Assembly: GCA_028279805.1 (NCBI GenBank)
Contig: JANQMZ010000007.1
Span: 300,001-332,000 of the forward strand
Direction of reading: 5' to 3'
Length of the DNA: 32,000 bases
Source: an archaeon
Lineage (GTDB): Archaea > Iainarchaeota > Iainarchaeia > Iainarchaeales > JANQMZ01
Notes under the pieces: generated by a model
Database searches by the model: none
Told to the model about the DNA's origin: nothing
What the model saw: only the letters and a program-made list of their open reading frames with translations
Translations under genes and position numbers: made by a program
In this document: positions 9,585 through 31,569 of the stretch, piece after piece
Layout: every line of letters starts with the position of its first letter
How positions within the stretch are numbered: position 1 is the first letter of the stretch

Positions 9585-11291
9585 TTGGGTTCATTTAAAA
9601 GCAGCAAGATAATTGAAAGTGTGTCAAAAAAAATGGCAGAAGAATTTTACTCACCTCTGCCGAAAGGCTATAAAAAAGGAAAAACAAAATTTGTCATTGT
9701 AACAGGCAGCGTAATTTCAGGTTTGGGCAAAGGAATGATTACAAGTTCTTTATGCAAGCTTTTTGCAGACCGCGGATTAAAAGTTGAACCAATGAAACTG
9801 GAGGCATATTTGAATGTTGATGCCGGAACATTAAGTCCTTTCAGGCATGGGGAAGTTTTTGTTTTGGATGACGGTTATGAAACGGATATGGATATGGGTT
9901 CATATGAAAGATTTGTTGACAAAAATCTGACAAAAGATTCTTTTGTTACATCTGGAAGAATTTACAAGCAAATGATTGAAAAGGAAAGAAAAGGCGGTTA
10001 TCTTGGAAGAGATGTTCAGTTTGTTCCGCATGTAACAGGGGAAATAAAAAAAATTGTAAGAAATCTGGCAGTGCAAAGCAAGGCAGACATTGTTTTAATT
10101 GAGGTTGGAGGAACAGTCGGAGATTATGAGAATATGTTTGCATTGGAAGCATTAAGACAGCTTGTTTATGAGGAAGGGAAGCAAAATTCGTGTTTTATTA
10201 ATGCAACCTATATTATTGAACCAAAATCTTTAGGCGAACATAAAAGCAAAGCAGCACAACTTGGTTTAAAAAATCTGATGAGCATTGGAATAATGCCTCA
10301 CATTGTTATCTGCAGGAGTATTACAAAAATTCCTCAAAAAATCAGGGAAAAAATTTCAATGAACAGCGGAATTCCTGTTGAAAATGTTATTGGAATGGAG
10401 GATATTGACGGCATTTATGAACTGCCATTGGAATTGAGGAAAAGAGGATTGGACGAACTTGTTTTGGAAAAATTAAAACTTGGCAAAAAGTTTAAGGCAA
10501 ATGACAAAAAATTAATTGAATGGACAAAACAGAATTCTGTTTCAAAAAATGCTCCAATTGTCAAAATAGGAATAGCAGGCAAATACACCGGCTTAAAAGA
10601 TTCTTATATCAGCATTTTAAAAGCATTAGAGCATTGTGAAGGAAAATTAAACAAAAAAGTTGAAATTGAATGGATTAATACACGATTGTTAGGCAAAGGA
10701 AACTTAAAAGAAAAAAAGAAGTTAAAAAAATTAAACGGAATAATTGTGCCGGGCGGATTCGGAAAAGACGGAATTGAAGGAAAAATAATGGTTGCAGAAT
10801 ATTGCAGAAAAAACAATGTTCCGTATCTTGGATTATGTTTAGGTTTTCAGATAGCATTAATTGAAATAGCCAGAAATGTTGCAAAAATAAAAAATGCAAA
10901 TTCAACAGAATTTGAATCAAACCCTGAAAATCCTGTAATTGACCCATTGGAAGAAACAAAAAAAATTGAAGGGTTAGGCGGAACAATGAGACTGGGAGGC
11001 AAAAATGTTGAAATAAAAAAAGGAACAAAAGCTTACAGGTTACATGGAAACAAAAACAAAATAAGGCGGAGATTCAGGCACAGGTTTGAATGCAACCCTG
11101 ATTATATTGAAACGTTTGAAAATTCTGGTGTAATGTTTTCAGGAAAAGCTCCAAAATTACCAATAATGCAAATACTTGAAATTCCAAAACACAAATTTTT
11201 TATGGGAACACAGTTTCACCCGGAATTTACTTCACGACCTTTAAACCCTGATCCCATATTTTTAGAATTTGTAAGGCAGGCGGGAAAATGA
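9585..11291 (+). CDS. pyrG: CTP synthase
   Basis: N-terminal synthase domain VTGSVISGLGKG and C-terminal glutamine amidotransferase domain with the LGLCLGFQ nucleophile elbow. TTG 9585 has an SD-like G-run 5 nt upstream; alternative ATG at 9633. Confidence 0.93.
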   Translation: MGSFKSSKIIESVSKKMAEEFYSPLPKGYKKGKTKFVIVTGSVISGLGKGMITSSLCKLFADRGLKVEPMKLEAYLNVDAGTLSPFRHGEVFVLDDGYETDMDMGSYERFVDKNLTKDSFVTSGRIYKQMIEKERKGGYLGRDVQFVPHVTGEIKKIVRNLAVQSKADIVLIEVGGTVGDYENMFALEALRQLVYEEGKQNSCFINATYIIEPKSLGEHKSKAAQLGLKNLMSIGIMPHIVICRSITKIPQKIREKISMNSGIPVENVIGMEDIDGIYELPLELRKRGLDELVLEKLKLGKKFKANDKKLIEWTKQNSVSKNAPIVKIGIAGKYTGLKDSYISILKALEHCEGKLNKKVEIEWINTRLLGKGNLKEKKKLKKLNGIIVPGGFGKDGIEGKIMVAEYCRKNNVPYLGLCLGFQIALIEIARNVAKIKNANSTEFESNPENPVIDPLEETKKIEGLGGTMRLGGKNVEIKKGTKAYRLHGNKNKIRRRFRHRFECNPDYIETFENSGVMFSGKAPKLPIMQILEIPKHKFFMGTQFHPEFTSRPLNPDPIFLEFVRQAGK

Positions 11292-14701: not shown

Positions 14702-15874
14702 TTAGTTTAACCCGCAGGCTTTTCTTAAAGCTTTAATTTTGTCAGTTTTTTCCCAGGTAAACTCTGATTCTTTTCTGCCAAAATGACCATAACAAGAAGT
14801 TTTTGAAAAAATTGGCCTTAACAAATTTAATTCTTTTATTATGCCTCCCGGGGACAAAGCAAAATTTTTCAAAACAGCTTTATGAATTTTTTTAACAGAA
14901 ACATTATTTGTGCCGAATGTATCAATAAAAACAGATAAAGGTTTTTTTGAACCGATAACATAGGATAATTGAACATCACATTTTTGAGCAAGCTTTGCTG
15001 CAACAATATTTTTGGCAATATGCCTTGCCTGATAAGCAGCAGACCTGTCCACTTTGGACGGGTCTTTTCCTGAAAAAGCGCCTCCACCATGAGAACCCAT
15101 GCCCCCATAAGTGTCAACAATAATTTTTCTGCCCGTGCAACCCGCATCAGCAACCGGCCCTCCAATGACAAACCTGCCGGTATTATTAATAAAATATTTT
15201 GTTTTATTGTCAATATATTTTTGACACACAGGCCTGATTACCTTGTTTAAAATATCTTTTCTTAATTTTGACATTAAAACATTTGAATCATGCTGTGCTG
15301 CCACAACAATGCTTGAAATTCTTTTAGGCTTGTTATTTTGATATTCAACTGTTACCTGTGTTTTGCCGTCAGGGCGCAAATAAGGCAAAGTTTTGTTTTT
15401 TCTCACCTGAGCCAAATGTTTTGCAAGTTTTTGGGCCACCATTATGGGCAAAGGCATTAATTCAGGTGTTTCATTTGCTGCAAAACCTGACATCATGCCC
15501 TGGTCTCCAGCACCAACGTCATGTTTTTCTTTTTTTGAATTAACACCTAAAGCAATATCAGGGCTTTGTTCGCTGATGCTTGTTAAAATTCCCACCGAAT
15601 TATAATCAAAACCATATTCCGGTTTTGTATAACCAATTTTTTTCAAAGTTTTTTTTGCAATTTCCGCAGCATTAAAAGAAGCTTTTGTTGAAATTTCCCC
15701 TGTTATTAGAATAAAACCGTTTCCTGCAACAGTTTCACATGCAACCCTGCCATGCTTGTCCTGTTTTAAAATTTCATCCAGAACAGCATCGGAAAGCTGG
15801 TCACAAACCTTGTCAGGATGCCCTTCAGTCATAGCCTCAGATGTAAAAGAATAAGTTAAGCCGCTTTGCCTCAT
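14702..15874 (-). CDS. metK: S-adenosylmethionine synthetase, bacterial/eukaryotic type
   Basis: TEGHPDKVCDQLSDAVLD, GAGDQGMM and GGGAFSGKD signature blocks. AGGTGA Shine-Dalgarno site upstream. Confidence 0.95.
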   Translation of the reverse strand: MRQSGLTYSFTSEAMTEGHPDKVCDQLSDAVLDEILKQDKHGRVACETVAGNGFILITGEISTKASFNAAEIAKKTLKKIGYTKPEYGFDYNSVGILTSISEQSPDIALGVNSKKEKHDVGAGDQGMMSGFAANETPELMPLPIMVAQKLAKHLAQVRKNKTLPYLRPDGKTQVTVEYQNNKPKRISSIVVAAQHDSNVLMSKLRKDILNKVIRPVCQKYIDNKTKYFINNTGRFVIGGPVADAGCTGRKIIVDTYGGMGSHGGGAFSGKDPSKVDRSAAYQARHIAKNIVAAKLAQKCDVQLSYVIGSKKPLSVFIDTFGTNNVSVKKIHKAVLKNFALSPGGIIKELNLLRPIFSKTSCYGHFGRKESEFTWEKTDKIKALRKACGLN

Positions 15875-16059
15875 AAACTCACCTAATTTTTATCAATAGG
15901 GCTAAAAAACGCTTAATAAGGTTTTGGTGCAAATCTGGTTTAATTAAAAGAATTTTAATGCTTTTTTTAGAAAAAAATTTATTAATAAGTTTTCATATTA
16001 TTTCTACAACAAAATTTGATTATAATAACAGTATTTGACATGTTTTCGGGGATTTTTTA

Positions 16060-16863
16060 ATGACAACTAATTTGTTAATGTGCAAGCCGGATTTTTTTAA
16101 AGTAAGTTATGAGATTAATCCGTGGATGCATGTTTACAATAAGGTAAACGAAAAAGTTGCATTAGAACAATGGGAAACTGTTGTTCAGAATCTTGAAAAT
16201 TTGAATGTAAAAATTGATTTGATTGAACAGGACAAAAACTTGCCTGATGAAGTGTTTACAGCAAACTTCGGAGTTGCTTTTAATAAAAAATTTTTAGCAA
16301 GCAATTTTAAATATGAGGAAAGGCAGCCTGAAAAAACAGAAGCAATTGAATGGTTTCAAAAAAACACAGATTATGATGTTGTGGAATTGCCTGAAAAATT
16401 TGAATTTGAAGGAAAAGGGGACATGCTTTATTCAAAAAATACGGCTGTTATTGCAAATGGTTACAGAACATCGGATGAAGCCATTAACCACATAAAAAAC
16501 ATTTTTCCGGAATTTAAAAAATATGTAAGAGTAAAATTAATCAACCCTAATTTTTACCATCTGGATACATGTTTTTCTTTTTTAAATGAAAAAACAATAA
16601 TGTTTTACCCGGAAGCATTTGAAAAAGAACAAGCACAACAATTTTATGAAATTACAGAAAATGTAATTGAAATAAGCAAAGAAGATGCTGAATATTTTGC
16701 ATGCAACAATGTAACGGTTAAAAATAAAATTTTGTTAAACAAAGCAAGCCAGGATTTACAGGACAAATTAAACAGTTACGGATTTGAACCAATTTTTTGC
16801 CCCACAAGCGAATTCATGAAAGCCGGCGGATCAATAAGATGCATGGTACTGGATTTAGACTAA
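16060..16863 (+). CDS. amidinotransferase-fold enzyme (arginine deiminase / DDAH-like)
   Basis: N-terminal LLMCKPDFFKVSYEINPWM and C-terminal GGSIRCMVL (catalytic Cys context) are typical of the guanidino-group-modifying enzyme superfamily. Confidence 0.7.
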   Translation: MTTNLLMCKPDFFKVSYEINPWMHVYNKVNEKVALEQWETVVQNLENLNVKIDLIEQDKNLPDEVFTANFGVAFNKKFLASNFKYEERQPEKTEAIEWFQKNTDYDVVELPEKFEFEGKGDMLYSKNTAVIANGYRTSDEAINHIKNIFPEFKKYVRVKLINPNFYHLDTCFSFLNEKTIMFYPEAFEKEQAQQFYEITENVIEISKEDAEYFACNNVTVKNKILLNKASQDLQDKLNSYGFEPIFCPTSEFMKAGGSIRCMVLDLD

Positions 16864-16908
16864 AGCAAAGCCGGATTAATTCGATTTCTATCAAATAATA
16901 CAGGAATT

Positions 16909-17100
16909 GCGAGCAAAGCGAGCCAGTCTGATCATATTGTATAGTGGCAACCTGCGTGCTATTTAACAGCAAAACTTGCGTCAAAGGCGCCAATCCCAAC
17001 GCAGTTGGGATGTTCGTAGCCGGAACACCGGCTTTTTGCGCCCCAAGACGCCAGTGCCACTGAAAGTGGCACGACCCATAGCCGCGGTCAGGCGGCTTTT
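16909..17100. ncRNA. GC-rich structured RNA candidate, family unassigned, strand unresolved
   Basis: The core 16978-17100 is 75/123 G+C by hand count, against about 30% in a nearby coding sample. It has four perfect hairpins plus an enclosing two-segment helix (coordinates in findings). It lies in a 323-bp non-coding gap. Confidence 0.5.
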
Positions 17101-17117
17101 CACTTTGTCCCGTTAAC

Positions 17118-17134
17118 CAAAAAGTATTTAAATA
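17118..17134 (+). promoter_or_regulatory. BRE (CAAAAAG) + TATA box (TATTTAAATA) for the surface-protein operon
   Basis: Archaeal-type promoter about 60 nt upstream of ATG 17196. GGAGGG at 17180-17185 serves as SD. Confidence 0.45.
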
Positions 17135-17195
17135 ACATAGGCAGCAATAGTTACAACGTAATGTTATCAAATGAATACTGGAGGGTTTGTCTGTA

Positions 17196-17744
17196 ATGAG
17201 ATTTTTGTTGGCTTTTCTGGCTTTATTGCTTGTTTTTGGCAATGCTGCTGCATTCTCCCAAAATGATGTTTTGACACCCGGCAACATTTTTGTCGGTTCA
17301 GAAGTCAAAAATGTTACAATTACTGTTTCAAACGATTCATCTGTTGACAAGGATTTGGAACTGGGATTTATTGGCCCGAGAAATATTACTGTGGACTTTT
17401 TGAACGCTCCGGTCAAGATTGAGTCATTTGACTCTGTTGATATTACAATGAGAATCATTCCGGATGAAGAACCAAAACACACATCTTACAAGTCAACTTT
17501 AACGGTTTCATTGGGTGATGAGGTTGTTAACAGGCAGGTTAAAATAATTTTTGTCAACAAGGACGGGCAAACAGGGAATGCTGAACCTGGTTTGAATAAT
17601 CCGGGAACAGGTTTTTTCAGTTTTTTTTCACTGGAAGAATTTGGTTTGGAAAATTTTGGTTATACTGACCTGATTTTGACAATTATTGCAGTTGCTTTGA
17701 TTGCATTAGTCATAATTAAATTAAAAGAGCGTGGTGAAAAATGA
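17196..17744 (+). CDS. small surface protein: signal peptide, one Ig-like (CARDB/NEW3-like) domain, C-terminal TM anchor
   Basis: MRFLLAFLALLLVFGNAAA signal peptide and a C-terminal LILTIIAVALIALVII-KLKERGEK anchor. ATG 17196 is preferred over TTG 17187 because of SD spacing. Confidence 0.75.
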   Translation: MRFLLAFLALLLVFGNAAAFSQNDVLTPGNIFVGSEVKNVTITVSNDSSVDKDLELGFIGPRNITVDFLNAPVKIESFDSVDITMRIIPDEEPKHTSYKSTLTVSLGDEVVNRQVKIIFVNKDGQTGNAEPGLNNPGTGFFSFFSLEEFGLENFGYTDLILTIIAVALIALVIIKLKERGEK

Positions 17745-20302
17745 ATTTTAGATTTTTAACAGTTTTATTTGTATTATTTTTATCAACAATGGTTTTGGCA
17801 CAGCCAAATGTTTCACTGAATGCAAGTCCTCTGGAAACAAATGTTAATCTGGACGGGCAGTTTGAGATAACATTTGATGCTGAATGTTCTGATGATAACG
17901 GATTAGAGTTTTGTTTTCTGGATTTTGGAGATTTTTCAAGCTACGAATTTGTGGGAGATGAATGTAGTACGGGTGACACACTGTGCAGCGAAACAATTGA
18001 ACACACGTATGAACCGGATGGAACTTATACGGCAACACTTGTTGCAGGAAATGTTAATTCAGATGAAAATGAAGCATCTGTAAATTTAACATTGTTACCT
18101 CCTTTAGATTATCAAATAAACACGGAAATTCTTGCAAACGGAGAAGAAGATGAATTAGAAATTGAACTTGGAGAAACCGTAACATTTGACATTTTATGTG
18201 AAGAATTATCCCATAATGATATTGATTCATGTTTGGTTGACTTTGGTGATGGAGGTTCGCATGAGTTTATCGGATTTGAATGTGATGAAGGGGAAACATG
18301 CGAACTTGAATATGATTATACTTACACTGAACTGGGAGAATACAGTGCAAGCCTTACACAGGTAAGTTCAACATCAAATGCTTATTATTTAAAGTTTTCA
18401 TTGGTCACGGAAAGCGTTACAATCAATGTTGTTGAACCGGCTCCGGAAGAACCGGAGGAAAGCACTGACATTGTTTTAACACTTGAAACACAGACAATTA
18501 TAATGAAAAGCAATGACTCTGAAGGAGTAAGCTTAAAGGTTGAAAATACATCAAACCATCAAATCAGCATGGATTTGAGTGCGAAAGGTTCGTCTGTTTA
18601 TGTTGACGGAGAGCCAAGCGTTACCGATTTAACATTAAATGGAGGAGAAAGAACAACAATAAGCTTAAACGTTGAAACAACTGATGCGCCTTTGTCAACC
18701 TATAATGTTGAAGTAAAGGCAGAATTTGATAACACTGAAACAACAGCTGATCTGACTGTACAGGTTGCGGATGAAGGAACATTACTTGTTAATGCTGTTC
18801 AGGGAACAGATGTTTGCAGAACAAGCAATGATTCAATCAGTGTTGAAGTTAAAAACAATTCAAACAAGCAAAAATTTGTAGAATTATCAGGATTAAATGA
18901 GGCATTTTTGCCTACATTCAGCGAAAAAGAATTTTGGTTGGATCCAAATGAAACAAGAACAATTGAAATGTTTGTTCATACAAATTCAACAACAGATTTG
19001 GATGATTATACTGTTACAATCAGGGCTGAAACAGAAAATGAAATTGTATTTGAAAATGTTTCATTTGAAGTTGTACAATGTGCCGGGTTTGGCGGCGAAA
19101 ACTTTAAAGTAACACTTGATTCAAGCTGCACTGCAACAGGAGACAATGATGAATTAACACTTGATTTTAAAGTTGAAAACTTGACAGATGAAGAAATTGA
19201 ATTAAATGTTAACACAATTTCAGATTTGATTACAAGCGTTCCTTTAACAATCACTGTTCCTGCAGACGAGGAAGAAATTTTTGAAATTGATGTTGAAATA
19301 AGAACAAGTGACGATAAAGGAAAACATGACATTGATTTGTATGTCTGGGATTCACAGGACACAATAACAAAAACAACTTGTGTAAATGTCGGTTCTTTTA
19401 CGGATATCTCTTTTGACCTGCTTGAAAACAATTTAATAATTGAACAGGGAAAAAATGAAGTGTATACACTGCATTTTGAAAACACCGGCAATTCAAACGG
19501 AAACGTAAAAGTAACAATTGACAATGATACTGATGCTGACACCAGATTGTCAAGCGAAAACACAAGTTCAACATCTTCAAAAGTTAAAACTTATACTGTC
19601 GACGACGATGACGAGTTAGATGTTTTTGTAAGTGTTTCAGTTCCGCTGGACATGGATACAGGAACATATTCAATTGAAGTTGAACTGACAAATACGGATA
19701 TTGAAAGAACATTTTTAAGATTTTCAGTTGTTGAACCGGGAACACTTGCACTGGAAAAAATTGACATAACTTTGTTGCCTATTACTGCAACATTAAACCA
19801 GGGCGAACAGGGAGAATTTGAATTTGTTCTGGCAAACTTTTCAACAGAGGATTTGTTTGATGCTGAGTTAAGCTTTGAAGGGCTTCCTCAGGGAGTTGAG
19901 ACAACCACAAGAACTGTTGATTTAAGAGGCAAAAGAACGGTTTCGTTAATGCAGAGTTTTTCAGTTTCAGAAGATGCAGAGCCGGGATTGCATACTGTTA
20001 AAGCAAAACTTTCAGCCGGAGACAAAGAGGTTGAAAAAAGCTTTGTTTTGGAAATAAAAGAAAAAGCAGGTTTTGCTCCGATAACAGGATTGTTTTCTGT
20101 AGTTGGTGAATTAGGACCAGCTTTAATTATTTTTCTGTTAGCAATTATATTGATTGCGCTCTTTTTAAGAGGCAGGGGAATGGACGGCCCGAGTTATCGT
20201 GCTCAAAGAGAAGAAAGAAATGAAAACAAAACAGAATCCAATTATTTGGAAGAAAGATTAATGGAAATAAAGCCTGAAACTTCAGATGAACAGACAGAAT
20301 AA
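17741..20302 (+). CDS. large surface protein: signal peptide, two PKD-like modules, about five CARDB/NEW3-like Ig repeats, C-terminal TM anchor and acidic cytoplasmic tail
   Basis: DFGDG...H.Y...G.Y PKD signatures occur twice. Repeated V-x-N-x-S/G-N...Y-x-V-x-V beta-sandwich units follow. TM segment ALIIFLLAIILIALFL-RGRG. ATGA overlap with the upstream gene. Confidence 0.85.
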   Translation: MNFRFLTVLFVLFLSTMVLAQPNVSLNASPLETNVNLDGQFEITFDAECSDDNGLEFCFLDFGDFSSYEFVGDECSTGDTLCSETIEHTYEPDGTYTATLVAGNVNSDENEASVNLTLLPPLDYQINTEILANGEEDELEIELGETVTFDILCEELSHNDIDSCLVDFGDGGSHEFIGFECDEGETCELEYDYTYTELGEYSASLTQVSSTSNAYYLKFSLVTESVTINVVEPAPEEPEESTDIVLTLETQTIIMKSNDSEGVSLKVENTSNHQISMDLSAKGSSVYVDGEPSVTDLTLNGGERTTISLNVETTDAPLSTYNVEVKAEFDNTETTADLTVQVADEGTLLVNAVQGTDVCRTSNDSISVEVKNNSNKQKFVELSGLNEAFLPTFSEKEFWLDPNETRTIEMFVHTNSTTDLDDYTVTIRAETENEIVFENVSFEVVQCAGFGGENFKVTLDSSCTATGDNDELTLDFKVENLTDEEIELNVNTISDLITSVPLTITVPADEEEIFEIDVEIRTSDDKGKHDIDLYVWDSQDTITKTTCVNVGSFTDISFDLLENNLIIEQGKNEVYTLHFENTGNSNGNVKVTIDNDTDADTRLSSENTSSTSSKVKTYTVDDDDELDVFVSVSVPLDMDTGTYSIEVELTNTDIERTFLRFSVVEPGTLALEKIDITLLPITATLNQGEQGEFEFVLANFSTEDLFDAELSFEGLPQGVETTTRTVDLRGKRTVSLMQSFSVSEDAEPGLHTVKAKLSAGDKEVEKSFVLEIKEKAGFAPITGLFSVVGELGPALIIFLLAIILIALFLRGRGMDGPSYRAQREERNENKTESNYLEERLMEIKPETSDEQTE

Positions 20303-20319
20303 AAAAAAGGGGAAAAAAG

Positions 20320-22272
20320 ATGCTGAAAAATTTTTTAATTTTTACATTTTTAGTTTTAATTCTTGGAAGTGTTAATGCAACATTTGTTGATTCACTTGAA
20401 ACAGAATCAGATTGTTTTATTCCCGCAGAAGAGCTTTTTGATTTTACTAATACTTCAAGTCAAACACAAACATATGTAATTGAAGCGGAAGGAAAAGAAG
20501 GGGAATGGATTAACCTTGAAGGGCACTGGATTGGACGCGGTGAACCTCTAAAATTTTCACTTGCCTCAGGAAAAACAGAGGGCTTATGGGCATTCATTAA
20601 ACCGGATTGCAGAACATTACCGGGAAATTATGAGATTAATTTAATTATTCATGAGGGAAGCAAAAAAATTTCACAAAAAATAGATTTTGAAGTTTTAGAA
20701 AGCAGGGTTTTAAAAATAACGCCGGTTAAAGACGAATTAAATACGGGACAATGTTCCGAAGCACAGTTTTCATTCAATGTAAGGAATATCAGCAAAGCGG
20801 ATGAATTAATTTCAATAGAAATAGAAAATTTGCCGGGAGAATGGTATAATCTGAATTCAAAAGAATTTTTTCTGAAAAAAGGCGGATTAAAAAAAATTGA
20901 ACTGGATGTTGCAGTTCCGTGCGGAAGAAGCGCGGGAGAATATGAGTTTGATGTTCTGGCAAGAATCAAGGGAACAGAATTTTTTGTCATAAAACCTTTC
21001 ACTCTTAACCTGCTTGACAATCAAAAAATTTCAATAAGCTCAGTTTCACAGCAGGAAATGTGTTCGGAAAAAAAACATGAACAAATTTTTACAGTTAAGA
21101 ATTTGGGAGAAGAAACGGATGAACTTGAATTATCTTTAACAGGCCCAGACTGGCTTTCTTTAAAAGAAACAAGTTTTTCGCTTGAAAGGGGAGAAAGCAA
21201 AGAAATAACCCTTTTTGTTGATGACAGCAGAAAAACAGGCAATTACGATTTTAGTGTGAGGGCATATTCAACCAAGTTTAACAAAACAACAACAAAGCAA
21301 ATGAAAATAAACACAGCATTATGTAATGCTTTAAGGCTTGATTCAAGTGACTTGGACAGGCAAATAGAAGTTGAAGCGGGAAAAGAAAAAGTTTACACTT
21401 TAAAAATTTCAAATCTTGGAACAAAAGAAAACAATGTAAAAGTAAGCGTTTCAGGACTGGACTGGGTTTATTTTAACCCGAAAGAATTTACAGTTCAGCC
21501 AAACACAACTGAAGAATTTTTCTTATATTTTGCACCGGTCATCGACCAGGAAGAAGGAACATATGAGGCAACATTAAATGCAAGCGGAACAAATTTTTCA
21601 CAAAACATTCCGATACAGGTTACAAGTTTTGGCGGAACAAATGCTTTAACCAAAGGAACAAGTTTGGATGCCGAATCAAAAGTTAATGAAGTGAAAACAG
21701 TTGGGGACAGGATTGTTTTGGCAGATGTTTCATTTGTAAACAACGGAGAAACAATACTTGAAATGCAAAACATTACAGCTGAAAATTTTGACACAGAATT
21801 TGAATTTACAGAACAAACATTAAAGCCGGGGGAAAGCACAACAATTCCGACAACTATTTATTTGAAAGAAGAATTTGAAGAAACCCTTTTTAGAATTCCT
21901 TTAAAAATTGAAACACAAATAGGCATGCTTGAAAAAGAATTGGAAATAAATCTTGAAGAAAAAACTGTAACTCCGGTCGGATTGTTTTCATTCGGGGAAA
22001 TAAGCAAAGACTTTATAATCGGGGCATTGGTTTTGATAATTATAGCATTAATTTTTTACACTCAGACAATCGGAAAAAAAACGCCAATACTTGATATTCG
22101 TTCAGCACAGGAAAAAAACATGGGAAATGAAAAAAATTCTGAAACAAATGAAAGCTTTGAAAATAATGATGAAATAATTGACATCAGGTCAAAAGATGAA
22201 AAAGATTCCAATCCTTTAAACCTGGGAAAAAATGTTAATATAAAAAATTCAGAGGATGAATCCCGGAAATAA
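20320..22272 (+). CDS. large surface protein: signal peptide, multiple CARDB/NEW3-like Ig repeats, C-terminal TM anchor, 70-aa cytoplasmic tail
   Basis: MLKNFLIFTFLVLILGSVNA signal peptide, repeated beta-sandwich units, and TM segment IIGALVLIIIALIFY. GGGGAAAAAAG upstream of the ATG. Confidence 0.85.
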   Translation: MLKNFLIFTFLVLILGSVNATFVDSLETESDCFIPAEELFDFTNTSSQTQTYVIEAEGKEGEWINLEGHWIGRGEPLKFSLASGKTEGLWAFIKPDCRTLPGNYEINLIIHEGSKKISQKIDFEVLESRVLKITPVKDELNTGQCSEAQFSFNVRNISKADELISIEIENLPGEWYNLNSKEFFLKKGGLKKIELDVAVPCGRSAGEYEFDVLARIKGTEFFVIKPFTLNLLDNQKISISSVSQQEMCSEKKHEQIFTVKNLGEETDELELSLTGPDWLSLKETSFSLERGESKEITLFVDDSRKTGNYDFSVRAYSTKFNKTTTKQMKINTALCNALRLDSSDLDRQIEVEAGKEKVYTLKISNLGTKENNVKVSVSGLDWVYFNPKEFTVQPNTTEEFFLYFAPVIDQEEGTYEATLNASGTNFSQNIPIQVTSFGGTNALTKGTSLDAESKVNEVKTVGDRIVLADVSFVNNGETILEMQNITAENFDTEFEFTEQTLKPGESTTIPTTIYLKEEFEETLFRIPLKIETQIGMLEKELEINLEEKTVTPVGLFSFGEISKDFIIGALVLIIIALIFYTQTIGKKTPILDIRSAQEKNMGNEKNSETNESFENNDEIIDIRSKDEKDSNPLNLGKNVNIKNSEDESRK

Positions 22273-28282: not shown

Positions 28283-29758
28283 ATGGCAACCCAGTTATTG
28301 AAATTTAAGCGTTCTTTGTCTGAAATAACAAAAGTTGAAAAAATTTTAGGCTGGGGACAATTATGCTACAAGGACAAAAGCATTAGAAGAAAATTTAAAG
28401 AAAAAGAATTATGGGAAATTGTTGAATTGCGTAACGGGGAAAAAATTTTTTTATGCAAACAGTTTCCTCCTTTAACAAAAAAAGAAGCATTGTTTTTGAG
28501 AAGCGTTTTAAAAATTTACCAGTTAAAAGAACAAAAAAACAGTGTTGAAAAAACCCTGCAAAAATACTGCAAAAGCAAATTAATTGAACTGGATGAAGAA
28601 CAAAAAAAATATTTTTTAAAAATACTTCATTCACTTACATCAGGTTTTGGTCCTTTAAATTCAATAATGAAAAACACTGAACTGGAAGAAATTGCACTGG
28701 TGGGATTAGGCAAAACAAAACCGGTATATGTTTACCACATTTCATTCGGCTGGCTGAAAACAAATATTTACATTTCAAAAGAAGATTTTGCCTTAAGCCT
28801 GATAAACAAAATGGCACGTTCAACTGGAAGAAGAATTTCAACACAATACCCCAAACTTGATGCAATTCTTCCAAACGGTTCAAGATTAAATGCAACAATT
28901 CCCCCTTTTTCCGTTAAAGAGCCGACTTTTACAATAAGAAAATTTAATTCTGTTAAGTTTTCTCCAAGCGCTTTATGCAAAAACAATACTTTTACAACAC
29001 AAACTCTTGCATTTTTGTGGATGGCAATAGAATCAGATTGTTCATTTATGATTTGCGGCAATACTGGTTCGGGAAAAACAACAAGCCTGAATGCATTATT
29101 TTGTTTTGTGCCAAAAGAAGACAGAATTGTTGTGGCAGAAGACACACCTGAACTTTTTGTTCCGCACAAACATGTTGCAAGGCTGGCAAGCGAAGAAAAA
29201 ATGAACATAACAATGCAGGATTTAATCATAAATTCTTTAAGAATGAGGCCGGACAGAATTATTGTAGGAGAAATAAGGAAAAAAAAGGAAGTTGAAGCTT
29301 TTATTGAAACACTGCTTGCGGGACAGGGAAAAGGCTCTTATGCAACATTTCACTCCAATTCAGCACAGGAAGCTGTTAAAAGAATGAAAATGCTGGGAAC
29401 AAGTGAAATGGATTTGGAGGCTCTTGATTTAATAATAGTTCAGAAAAGGCATACAATTATTGATAAAAAAACACGGATGAGAAAAGAAAAAAGAAATGTT
29501 CTCGAAGTAACAGAAATATTGCCAGGCAAAAAAGGAGTCAGGCTAAACACGTTATACGAATACGATTTTTCAAAAAATTTTCTTAAAGCAAAAAACAAAA
29601 GCAAAAAAGTGAAAAGAAAAATTTTAAGCTCTTTTTCTTTAAACGAAAAAGAATTAAACAAGGAATTAAAAAAGAGGGAAAAATTTTTGGAAAAATTGAC
29701 ATCAGAAAAAGACAATCTTGAAATATTTTTTGAAAAAGCTTCAGGTGATTTGAATTAA
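28283..29758 (+). CDS. type IV filament / secretion ATPase (FlaI / TadA / VirB11 superfamily)
   Basis: Walker A CGNTGSGKTT, Asp box VVAEDTPEL, Walker B PDRIIVGEIR, His box TFHSNS, and a Lys-rich ~60-aa C-terminal extension. Confidence 0.9.
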   Translation: MATQLLKFKRSLSEITKVEKILGWGQLCYKDKSIRRKFKEKELWEIVELRNGEKIFLCKQFPPLTKKEALFLRSVLKIYQLKEQKNSVEKTLQKYCKSKLIELDEEQKKYFLKILHSLTSGFGPLNSIMKNTELEEIALVGLGKTKPVYVYHISFGWLKTNIYISKEDFALSLINKMARSTGRRISTQYPKLDAILPNGSRLNATIPPFSVKEPTFTIRKFNSVKFSPSALCKNNTFTTQTLAFLWMAIESDCSFMICGNTGSGKTTSLNALFCFVPKEDRIVVAEDTPELFVPHKHVARLASEEKMNITMQDLIINSLRMRPDRIIVGEIRKKKEVEAFIETLLAGQGKGSYATFHSNSAQEAVKRMKMLGTSEMDLEALDLIIVQKRHTIIDKKTRMRKEKRNVLEVTEILPGKKGVRLNTLYEYDFSKNFLKAKNKSKKVKRKILSSFSLNEKELNKELKKREKFLEKLTSEKDNLEIFFEKASGDLN

Positions 29759-30542
29759 AATACTTGAATTAATTGAAAAAAAATTAAAAAAAGCAAATGT
29801 TAAAGAAAAACCGAAAGAATTTTTCAGAAAAATTTTCCTCATTTCATTCTTTTTTTCAGTTATAATTTTTGTTTCACTATGGGCAATTGAAATTGCAATA
29901 AATACTGCGTTGATTTTTTCATTTTTTTCATTTGTATTTGTTTCCCTGTTTTTGTTATGGATTCCCAGAATAAAAAAAAGAAAAATGCAGGAAAAATTTG
30001 AAAAACACCTGCCTTTTGCCTTAGTGGATCTGGCAATAACCGTTGATTTGGGAATGGGATTTGAAGAAAGCATGGAAAAAGTTTCAAAAAAAAATTACGG
30101 AATGGCAAGCAAAGAATTTTCAAAAATAGTTAAAAGTGTTAAAGAGAAAGGAGCTACACTTGAACAAGCTTTAAAGGAGATGAGCAGAAGAATTGATTCA
30201 CTGAATGCAAGAAGAGTTGCATCACAGCTTGACCAGATTTATTTAATGAGTGACACAAAAGGAGGAGAACAGCTCAGAATTTTTGCAGCAGAATTGATGA
30301 ATTCGCAGAAAAACCAGGCCAAAGCTTTTTCAGGAAAAACCGCCTTTTATGCACTATTGTTTGTGGCTTTTTCTGCTTTAGTGCCGGCATTATTTCAGGC
30401 TTTCCTAGTGGCAGGCTCTCTTTTACTGGAAATAAATATTAAGCCATTGCAAGCTTTGGCTTTGATTATAGTGGGTTTTCCGGCTGCAAACATTTTAATT
30501 TTAGGATTAATATGGAGCAAAACACCGGAGTTTTTGAAATGA
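29754..30542 (+). CDS. half-size type IV filament platform protein (TadB/TadC / EpdJ-K-like, single T2SS-F domain); start codon uncertain
   Basis: The frame is open from 29754, and the first canonical start is TTG 29910, inside a predicted TM helix. The paralog's architecture supports the longer form. The cytoplasmic helical domain LPFALVDLAITVDLGMGFEESMEKV...GATLEQALKEM is flanked by TM pairs. Confidence 0.7.
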   Translation: MKILELIEKKLKKANVKEKPKEFFRKIFLISFFFSVIIFVSLWAIEIAINTALIFSFFSFVFVSLFLLWIPRIKKRKMQEKFEKHLPFALVDLAITVDLGMGFEESMEKVSKKNYGMASKEFSKIVKSVKEKGATLEQALKEMSRRIDSLNARRVASQLDQIYLMSDTKGGEQLRIFAAELMNSQKNQAKAFSGKTAFYALLFVAFSALVPALFQAFLVAGSLLLEINIKPLQALALIIVGFPAANILILGLIWSKTPEFLK

Positions 30543-31432
30543 ATTTTGATATGAATGCACTGGACCTGTTTTCAAAAAAACTTGAATCAAACAACAAAAC
30601 GCTTGAAGAATTTGCTGAAAAAAATTTATGGCTGTCTGTTTTTCTTGCACTGGTTACAGCCAGTCTTATGAGTTTTACAGGATTTGGATTGTTTGAAATT
30701 GTTATGACCGCATTGTTTGCAATTGTTTTTGTTTTTGCGTTAAGCATCGGACTTGAAATTCAAAAATTTGAATCAAAAAAAGCATTAAAAGAAAAACTGG
30801 TTGTGGATTTTTTGCTGGACGCATCAATAATGCCAAAAGGAACATCTTTTGAAAAAATTCTGGAAAATTCTTCAAAAGAATACGGGTTGCTGGGAAAAGA
30901 ATTTGCAAAAGTTTATGAAATGATAAAAAAAGGGGCAAGCGTTGAAGAATCATTAAAAGAATTTAACAACAGGAATGACAGCAAGGTTTTGGAAAGAGTT
31001 GCAGAATTGTTGCTGATGTTTTATTCCTCAGGAGCAGATATGGCTGAATCTTTTAAAAAAACAGCCGAAGACATTTTAAAAACGCAGAATATTTTAAGCC
31101 AGAAAAATGCTTCAATTGTTGTTCAAAAATACACAGTTTTATTTGCAGGAGGATTAATTGTTCCGCTGGTTTTGGGTTTGCTGTCTTCAATGTCACAGGG
31201 TTTTGATTTTAATGCTTTAAATTTTTTATTTGAAACCAAAACCATTATGGAAAGAGAACAGCTTCTTGAAACACTTTTGCTTGCAAACAAAATATACATA
31301 GCAGAATACGCAATAATTGCAGGAACATTTTTGGGATTGCAGGAAAATTCTGTGGGAAAAGGAATATTGTACGGGCTTGTGCTTATACCCGTTGGATTAA
31401 TTGTATACTTTTTAGCAGGGAGTTTGATATAA
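30539..31432 (+). CDS. second half-size platform protein (TadB/TadC / EpdJ-K-like)
   Basis: ATG 30539 forms an ATGA overlap with the upstream stop; track start 30512 is the alternative. Two N-terminal TM segments, a cytoplasmic domain ...GASVEESLKEF..., and C-terminal TM segments. Confidence 0.8.
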   Translation: MNFDMNALDLFSKKLESNNKTLEEFAEKNLWLSVFLALVTASLMSFTGFGLFEIVMTALFAIVFVFALSIGLEIQKFESKKALKEKLVVDFLLDASIMPKGTSFEKILENSSKEYGLLGKEFAKVYEMIKKGASVEESLKEFNNRNDSKVLERVAELLLMFYSSGADMAESFKKTAEDILKTQNILSQKNASIVVQKYTVLFAGGLIVPLVLGLLSSMSQGFDFNALNFLFETKTIMEREQLLETLLLANKIYIAEYAIIAGTFLGLQENSVGKGILYGLVLIPVGLIVYFLAGSLI

Positions 31433-31453
31433 AAAATAATTACACAAATTCTT

Positions 31454-31508
31454 GGACACGCCGGCGGACTCCGGCGACACGTCCGCAGGTGCTGTCTAAA
31501 GACAGCAC
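31454..31508 (+). other. GC-rich hairpin cluster after the platform genes (terminator or small structured RNA element)
   Basis: CGCCGG (31459-64) pairs with CCGGCG (31471-76). Alternative pairing: GCGGAC (31464-69) with GTCCGC (31481-86). A separate hairpin pairs GTGCTGTC (31489-96) with GACAGCAC (31501-08) around a TAAA loop. Confidence 0.4.
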
Positions 31509-31569
31509 ATAAATTCAATTGATTTTCAAATAAATTTATTAATTGCTTTTGCGTAAGATATGTGATTTT

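Follow-up and report, generated by a model that had tools for sequence, protein, structure and literature searches.

A tandem array of GC-rich hairpins behind a DDAH-like gene of an Iainarchaeales archaeon: a possible transcript 3'-end element

GC islands in AT-rich archaeal genomes reportedly served as an indicator of RNA genes in the 2002 screen of Klein and Eddy. Perfect inverted repeats are known to be enriched downstream of stop codons in Archaea, as they also are in Bacteria (PMC13155455), and transcription termination in Archaea relies on tracts of four to seven U (RNA polymerase, aCPSF1; PMC8716108). Here we describe a GC-rich, strongly structured block (core 16978-17100) in 32,000 nucleotides from an archaeon of the Iainarchaeales (GCA_028279805.1, contig JANQMZ010000007.1, positions 300,001 to 332,000); this whole stretch is referred to as the window, and all coordinates are given within it. 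The block stands between a gene of the DDAH/amidinotransferase type and a surface-protein operon, and an initial annotation had proposed it as a candidate structured RNA gene, possibly of an undescribed family. From the sequence, our tentative preference is for a cis-acting element of the plus strand, namely a tandem hairpin-plus-U-tract 3' end, or insulator, of the acquired DDAH-like gene.

The block is a real and non-random feature, GC-enriched, highly structured and non-coding. Its core contains 75 G+C in 123 nt (61%), compared with 18 in 60 in a coding sample at 28381-28440; a recount returned the figures of the initial annotation, which had also placed the block correctly, in sequence and coordinates, in the intergenic gap after the amidinotransferase gene (16864-17186, extending to 17195 with the ATG of the called gene downstream). 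The window has a mean GC of 0.343, and the core is its strongest GC island: the peak 100-nt value (0.63, start 16995) lies about 4.5 standard deviations over the mean, and the runner-up island reaches 0.55. Every helix that had been listed is present and perfect. Two outer helices, GCGTC 16978-82 with GACGC 17047-51 and GGCGC 16986-90 with GCGCC 17038-42, enclose the hairpins H1 (16993-17011; 8 bp, 3-nt loop) and H2 (17018-33; 6 bp, 4-nt loop) in a three-way junction (16978-17051) that appears in the minimum free energy (MFE) and centroid folds of both strands, and also when the block is folded as DNA. Two further hairpins follow, H3 (17054-72; a 5-nt loop on 7 bp or a 3-nt loop on 8 bp) and H4 (17080-97; 6 bp, 6-nt loop), the latter running into TTT. 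On the plus strand these helices amount to 38 bp, all 38 of them Watson-Crick, with no G-U pair, bulge or internal motif, and jointly they make up both the MFE and the centroid structure of 16970-17105 on either strand. The four perfect GC-rich hairpins in the 123-nt core compare with a mean of 0.146 over 3000 dinucleotide shuffles, none of which reaches four. The MFE of 16970-17105 is -60.2 kcal/mol on the plus strand (z -5.55) and -64.2 kcal/mol on the minus strand (z -4.29), and folding as DNA gives a z of -5.91. Both the hairpin count and the folding scores lie beyond the shuffles, indicating that the structure exceeds what composition alone yields.

A two-hairpin module, present twice in tandem with a period of 61 nt, makes up the core. 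The initial annotation had overlooked this duplication, together with the exclusively Watson-Crick pairing of the stems, the position of the first U-runs after the gene and the promoter downstream. Unit A (16983-17043, plus strand) reads AAGGCGCCA, H1, GTTCG, TAGCCGG-AACA-CCGGCT (H2) and a T-run; unit B (17044-17104, plus strand) reads AAGACGCCA, H3, GACCCA, TAGCCGC-GGTCAG-GCGGCT (H4) and a T-run. The shared plan is AAGRCGCCA, an 8-bp hairpin with a 3-nt loop, a spacer of 5-6 nt, TAGCCGS-loop-SCGGCT and a T-run (U4-5). The outer helices that close the junction are drawn from the leader palindrome GGCGCC of unit A, the tail of unit A and the leader of unit B. The two units are about 62% identical, and their local alignment score of 27 compares with 14.7 +/- 2.7 in shuffled sequences, with 4 of 2000 shuffles reaching 27. 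A covariance model built from unit B alone recovers unit A at 30.1 bits (E 4e-6 in 61 kb) and gives no other significant match. Between the units, in a count that is statistically weak as it comes from two sequences only, 5 of the 14 stem pairs differ at both positions, no pair differs at a single position, and all remain paired; in register-slid controls, with the 3' partners moved by 1-3 columns, pairing falls to 31-50%. The both-sided changes indicate that hairpin formation, and not sequence, is what persists between the copies. A third, degenerate unit upstream (16905-16982) was considered and dropped, its similarity to the two units being not significant, and comparison of 16864-16977 with the repeat units likewise gave no significant similarity.

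The position of the module ends relative to the upstream gene is of particular interest. The DDAH-like gene (16060-16863, plus strand; Pfam DDAH_eukar at 7e-30, ADI) ends well ahead of the GC core, and the block presumably lies in its 3' untranslated region. The spacer from the stop codon to the core (16864-16977, plus strand) rises in GC from 0.35 to 0.44 in 200-nt windows and holds no T-run of at least 4. The first such run past the stop codon, at +170, is the T5 tract at 17033-37, which stands directly after H2 (TTTT plus the last stem base), and a T4 tract (17097-17100) follows after H4. Among 21 gene ends, that of the DDAH-like gene has the longest 3' region free of T-runs, and 17 of the 21 have a run of at least 4 T within 65 nt. 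Both tracts are of the size of archaeal U-tracts (4-7 U downstream of a gene), they stand directly after 6-bp GC hairpins on the plus strand only, and each of the two units has kept this GC stem plus U-run ending in spite of the divergence. A scan for hairpin-plus-U-tract terminators called H4 (17080-97) with TTTCACTTTG, the sole terminator-like site in 15800-17400; H2 with T5 misses the scan criterion of 5 T in 8. On the far side of the block, 25 nt beyond it, lies a quasi-palindromic TATA box (TATTTAAATAA, 17125-17135, plus strand), which we assign as the promoter of the surface-protein operon. The TATTTAAATA box also precedes the positionally equivalent gene in a syntenic relative (contigs L082/L083; about 9805-9815 of L082) that lacks the block, which places the block upstream of the operon promoter, so that it is neither a 5' leader nor a riboswitch of that operon.

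These features bear on the reading of the block in several ways. Given that archaeal termination uses runs of 4-7 U (PMC8716108) and that the first run after the gene is the T5 behind H2, the DDAH transcript should reach the block and stop there. The gene itself is AT-rich (0.25-0.35) and the block is 61% GC, which argues that the GC stems are retained by selection. Perfect stems with tiny loops, free of bulges and G-U pairs, are what one expects of terminator or protective hairpins rather than of elaborate functional RNAs. The folding z-score also favours the plus strand (-5.55 against -4.29). Taken together, the duplication, the all-Watson-Crick stems, the first U-runs after the gene and the promoter downstream give a cis-acting 3'-end element a likelihood no lower than that of a stand-alone RNA gene.

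Such an element could work as follows. Transcription of the DDAH-like gene would meet no U-tract for 170 nt and then enter the block, where it would terminate at the U5 after H2, and polymerases reading through would stop at the U4 after H4. The GC hairpins just 5' of each U-tract would leave the transcript with a folded 3' end that resists 3'-to-5' decay, and they may additionally raise the effectiveness of the short, and hence weak, U-tracts. Placed in series, the two modules would insulate the promoter of the surface operon, about 25 nt farther on, from read-through. We infer in this scheme that the plus strand is transcribed and functional, that termination takes place at the tracts and that the hairpins serve stabilisation or insulation; the sequence has features in favour of either strand.

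A number of observations weigh against a 3'-end element. The archaeal terminators that have been studied need no hairpins (PMC8716108). In about 52 kb of this genome, a GC hairpin cluster was seen at just one further gene end (31453-31510), and hairpins are thus not the general mode by which genes end here. The three-way junction, the 8-bp hairpins and the raised GC of 16909-16977 are surplus to termination. The minus-strand fold is the more stable by 4 kcal/mol, with two additional G-U pairs in its closing helix; beyond its final helix comes a U4, and a minus-strand start near 17101 would have the palindromic TATA box at a suitable distance. Finally, no homologue or second example in the DNA searched backs any function.

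The main rival reading, nearly as likely in our judgement, is that the block is a gene in its own right. It would then encode a stand-alone small non-coding RNA of an undescribed type, private to the lineage; the RNA core would measure about 130 nt, the whole possibly as much as 190 nt. We take this reading seriously while doubting it. In its most concrete version the RNA is read from the minus strand, starting near 17101 at the palindromic TATA box, passing through H4', H3' and the junction and stopping with the U4 at 16974-16971. Such an RNA would have its effect either in trans, as a sponge or a protein-binding scaffold, or in cis, as an antisense to the DDAH 3' end. Being the strongest GC island of the window (61% against 34%), the block has the composition expected of such a gene, and its folding z-score is strong on both strands. 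The minus-strand fold shows the two extra G-U pairs in the junction helix that the initial annotation had pointed out, which give a closing stem of 5 bp plus 7 bp and an MFE of -64.2 kcal/mol, and its junction strands are A-rich. The T-runs at both ends are also as had been described: on the plus strand T4 follows H4, and on the minus strand U4 (16971-16974), which by direct reading is a candidate 3' end of an RNA of about 130 nt, lies 3 nt past the closing helix. The minus-strand body has no internal T-run of at least 4. A plus-strand version would hold the internal U5. The promoter can be argued either way. About 23 nt before 17101, read on the minus strand, stands a perfect TTTAAATA box; however, the TATA box exists anyway for the plus-strand operon, and by eye its flank fits the TFB recognition element (RNWAAW) better on the plus strand (4 of 6) than on the minus strand (2 of 6). 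Stem pairs that co-vary between the two units would suit an RNA, but 38 of 38 Watson-Crick pairs without bulges or internal motifs are unusual for a functional one. A fuller claim, that the block encodes a stand-alone RNA of about 130 nt, most plausibly on the minus strand, which founded an undescribed class in a deep-branching DPANN lineage by module duplication and acts in trans, for instance as a scaffold, or as DDAH antisense, is in our view unlikely.

Comparison with described RNA families yielded no candidate. At gathering thresholds, none of the 4227 models of Rfam 15 matched anywhere in the window. In E-value mode, run on 651 nt and on 144 nt, the output was noise, with isrK as the best alignment (14.3 bits against a threshold of 50) and all others at E of at least 2; the weak isrK and STnc450 alignments are driven by the terminator-like end of hairpin plus U-run. 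ARAGORN predicted no tRNA gene in the whole window, the T-arm motif GGTTCRANYCC was not found at up to 2 mismatches, and the Rfam tRNA model gave no match at E up to 10. Helix 8 of archaeal signal recognition particle (SRP) RNA, with its GNAR tetraloop and AGCA asymmetric loop, is absent from both strands, and the Archaea_SRP model did not match. For RNase P, neither CR-I GAGGAAAGUCC nor CR-V ACANAANNNGGCUUA (helix P4) was found at up to 2 mismatches, and there was no Rfam match. No cmscan match to 5S rRNA was obtained. The initial annotation had likewise not found the marks of SRP helix 8, RNase P CR-I, the T-loop and 5S rRNA, and the motif scans, with cmscan for 5S rRNA, bear it out: no known family fits the block. 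As for guide RNAs, the motif scan found no exact box C (RUGAUGA); a lone one-mismatch box C (ATGATCA, minus strand 16935-29) stands 3' of the single minus-strand CUGA, although box C should come first, some 50-70 nt ahead of box D (CUGA). Signs of an H/ACA RNA were sought on both strands, and no pocket, K-turn or ACA after any stem was seen; the four hairpins are uninterrupted with loops of 3-6 nt, and the bases 3' of the stems on the plus strand are GTT, TTT, GAC and TTT. A hammerhead core was not found in the motif scan.

Homologues of the block were searched for by cmsearch in a set of loci that includes all DPANN MetK loci, 80 DDAH loci, nearly all of them bacterial, and about 10.4 kb of extra DNA of the same genome. 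Covariance models of the whole block (R1) and of the unit (R2, R3) returned only self-matches in 202 kb and 702 kb of loci; the DPANN DNA in this set is a small search space, and absence elsewhere is not proven by it. With nhmmer, no match was obtained in any fetched locus, and blastn in distant mode gave nothing in 50,697 phage and 72,556 plasmid records. In viral contigs (IMG/VR), a 15-mer of the junction had 75 chance matches, none of which extends, and the 19-mer of H3 had none. A 23-base pattern of the positions shared by both units, which matches both units in the window, had 0 viral matches and 13 matches in JGI metagenomes. We rejected these 13 as homologues: they are terminator-like sites without the 8-bp hairpin, on contigs that look bacterial (48-69% GC), and hence count as chance matches. 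The sole covariation seen is the one between the two tandem copies. For a stand-alone RNA, this lack of homologues in the cmsearch loci, the viral and JGI pattern scans and the phage and plasmid searches, and the Rfam output of noise only, are points against.

A further comparison was possible at the locus itself. Through MetK, one truly syntenic relative was found, represented by the JGI contigs L082/L083 (MetK 72% identical); the other MetK loci are not syntenic. The order in this relative is MetK, a 243-bp AT-rich spacer (9758-10000), a signal-peptide-like protein of 195 aa and a very large surface protein with Ig domains; TraB flanks MetK on its opposite side. Its spacer between MetK and the operon holds neither the DDAH gene nor the GC block. 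The initial annotation had regarded absence of the block from related genomes as telling against an RNA gene, and in the sole syntenic relative the orthologous spacer indeed lacks it. Both the DDAH-like gene and the block being missing at this site, they were gained or lost together.

What the initial annotation proposed as a possibly undescribed RNA family therefore holds in one respect, that no described family matches, and fails in another, as neither homologues nor comparative data back a conserved new family, which is not supported by these searches. The lack of both a known-family match and a relative in the DNA searched makes the block read better as a local transcript-end element or as a lineage-private small RNA. 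It is new only in that nothing alike is catalogued, and nothing marks it as a new kind of element. It is filed best as a GC-rich stem-loop array at the 3' end of a gene, with a non-negligible chance of being an orphan small RNA.

Rather improbable, in our judgement, is an explanation at the level of DNA, with no role as RNA, in which the block is a palindromic element resembling a repetitive extragenic palindromic (REP) sequence, a bacterial interspersed mosaic element (BIME) or a miniature inverted-repeat transposable element, or is a remnant of the insertion of the DDAH-like gene. Its perfect repeats would be kept by template-switch correction, or as binding sites of a protein or recombinase. 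The pairing is suggestive in this respect, as all 38 pairs are Watson-Crick without G-T, both 19-bp palindromes have the same 8-3-8 geometry, and the block folds equally on both strands and no less well in the form of DNA (z -5.91); the sequences of the two 8-bp palindromes are not alike, however, so that they are not sites for one protein. The tandem-module organisation would fit a mobile or repeated element, as would the neighbourhood of a horizontally acquired gene that is missing from the relative together with the block. Against this, a search for dispersed copies in the 32 kb and flanks of about 10.4 kb saw only the two tandem units, and no further copies were found in the roughly 52 kb of the same genome or in the other DNA searched. 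The second GC hairpin cluster at 31453-31510 has GCCGG and GTGC...GCAC stems, but it is not significantly related to the block (10.6 bits, E 0.79; alignment p about 0.05). Neither terminal inverted repeats nor a target-site duplication were seen around the DDAH-like gene plus block, and no transposase, integrase or RAYT-type gene was found in the window by domain scans.

Integrons have been reported in archaea, and the order of open reading frame (ORF), basal helix, 3x4 unpaired spacer, second helix and branched tip recalls the R-box, spacer, L-box and variable terminal structure of an integron attC site behind a captured bacterial gene. This reading is close to refuted: the basal helix is GCGTC/GACGC instead of RYYYAAC/GTTRRRY, the single RYYYAAC (16961-67) lacks a same-strand GTTRRRY, the nearest R' candidate (GTTAACC, 17112-18) does not fit the consensus and the bases next to it lack complementarity, none of the 26 window ORFs scanned encodes an integron integrase or tyrosine recombinase, and there are no neighbouring cassettes. 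Hardly more credible are a small protein-coding gene, for which ORFs of 46 aa (plus strand, TTG start) and 40 aa (minus strand, GTG start) span the block but give Arg-rich peptides that are artefacts of GC-rich sequence and have no Pfam match, the 61-nt period, not a multiple of 3, also counting against coding, and a functionless chance structure, which is excluded by the 0 of 3000 shuffles reaching four hairpins and z-scores below -4.

The DDAH-like gene itself is a singleton. Its best homologues are at most 43% identical and come mostly from bacterial assemblies, where they lie within ArgZ-type arginine-catabolism operons. A search of genome contigs with the protein gave relatives of at most 41% identity, nearly all in bacterial assemblies and without synteny. 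The gene was probably acquired horizontally, as far as its relatives can tell; its composition is host-like and AT-rich, with 0.25-0.35 GC in 200-nt windows. In the spacer behind it, the stretch of raised GC (16909-16977) carries a direct repeat, GCGAGC-AAA-GCGAGC. The same stretch can pair over a long range with the 3' halves of H3 and H4 (CUGAUC 16928-33 with the H4 loop GGUCAG), which gives an alternative rod-like plus-strand fold of -83 kcal/mol (z -4.5) in competition with the local hairpins. A GTG-start ORF of 222 aa (16814-17482, minus strand) covers, in antisense, the 3' end of the DDAH-like gene, all of the block and the beginning of the 185-aa gene; Pfam gives no match for it and it looks artefactual, though automatic gene callers could be misled by it.

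The first gene of the surface operon (17196-17744, plus strand) encodes 182 aa from its ATG, or 185 aa from the TTG at 17187, and has a GGAGG 11 nt upstream. Among 5.8 billion proteins, no homologue of this protein was found save itself. The protein search did not bring up, as a homologue of the 185-aa protein, the 195-aa protein that holds the equivalent position in the syntenic relative, which suggests that the surface proteins of the operon (17187-17744, 17741-22272) evolve very fast. The TATA box TATTTAAATA has been kept between the two genomes though homology of the flanking proteins can no longer be detected; its palindromic form would in principle allow it to fire both ways. On the other side of the DDAH-like gene, S-adenosylmethionine synthetase MetK (14702-15874, minus strand) is of the bacterial/eukaryotic type (Pfam S-AdoMet_synt N, M and C) and not of the archaeal MAT type. 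It is 65-72% identical to the MetK of many metagenome-assembled genomes (MAGs) of DPANN archaea, and the named relatives (67-71% identical) are mostly annotated as Aenigmarchaeota, Woesearchaeota, Diapherotrites or Nanoarchaeota MAGs, so replacement by the bacterial type seems to be widespread in DPANN. Other genes of the window are archaeal (Nre, Lhr helicase, RFC, pilus/type II secretion system-type ATPase), and with the MetK relatives they point to a member of the DPANN, a group of small-celled and mostly symbiotic archaea. The contig measures 853 kb, and an assembly of the genome also exists from run SRR20820740.

The second GC hairpin cluster (31453-31510) lies just past the stop codon of a T2SSF-like gene (30512-31432), ahead of a PAC2-domain gene. 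It reads GGAC-AC-GCCGG-CGGACT-CCGGC-GACAC-GTCC, followed by GTGCTGTC-TAAA-GACAGCAC, with folding z-scores of -4.65 (plus strand) and -3.45 (minus strand), no Rfam match and its first T-run of at least 4 at +91. In view of the marginal similarity given above, we do not claim that it belongs to the same family as the block.

Should the block act as a 3'-end element, an archaeon would be keeping bacterial-style modules of GC hairpin plus U-tract, in tandem, behind a probably bacterial gene. Archaeal terminators, where studied, need the U-tract only, and the locus would then be a small but concrete reason to ask whether archaeal termination, or the stability of 3' ends, is modulated by hairpins. 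A further question would be how the densely packed genomes of DPANN archaea shield acquired genes from host promoters. A stand-alone RNA would add an orphan non-coding RNA to a group whose RNA repertoire is almost unexplored; lacking a homologue, it would be a single-genome curiosity. In either case, a GC island with perfect helices is insufficient for calling a new RNA family.

Set beside the described systems, the block shares features with each of them. With integron attC sites it shares a captured gene, two stacked helices, an unpaired spacer and a branched tip, but it is without the R''/R' cores, complementary L boxes and integrase. Like the GC-rich islands of archaeal non-coding RNAs (tRNA, rRNA, SRP, RNase P, C/D, H/ACA and Hgc), it is a sharp GC island with strong predicted structure, and its GC content resembles that of an rRNA fragment in locus L084 (0.64). 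Unlike them, it has no Rfam match and no C/D, H/ACA, SRP or RNase P motifs, its stems are perfect, and its conservation was not found in the relatives examined. The resemblance to REP/BIME elements and to stabiliser hairpins of 3' untranslated regions lies in the tandem GC-rich palindromic modules past a stop codon, in the folding of both strands and in the all-Watson-Crick stems. It differs from REP/BIME in having no dispersed copies in about 52 kb, in being made of direct and not alternately inverted repeats, and in lacking a RAYT or transposase gene; we know of no description of REP/BIME-type elements in DPANN archaea. From bacterial Rho-independent terminators, including tandem ones, the block departs in several respects: it sits in an archaeal host, where U-tracts suffice, its U-runs are short (4-5), H2 with its U5 lies inside a three-way junction, and each unit has an extra 8-bp hairpin. 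What it has in common with those terminators is a perfect GC stem followed directly by a U-run, two such units in series, and a place after a gene whose relatives are mostly bacterial.

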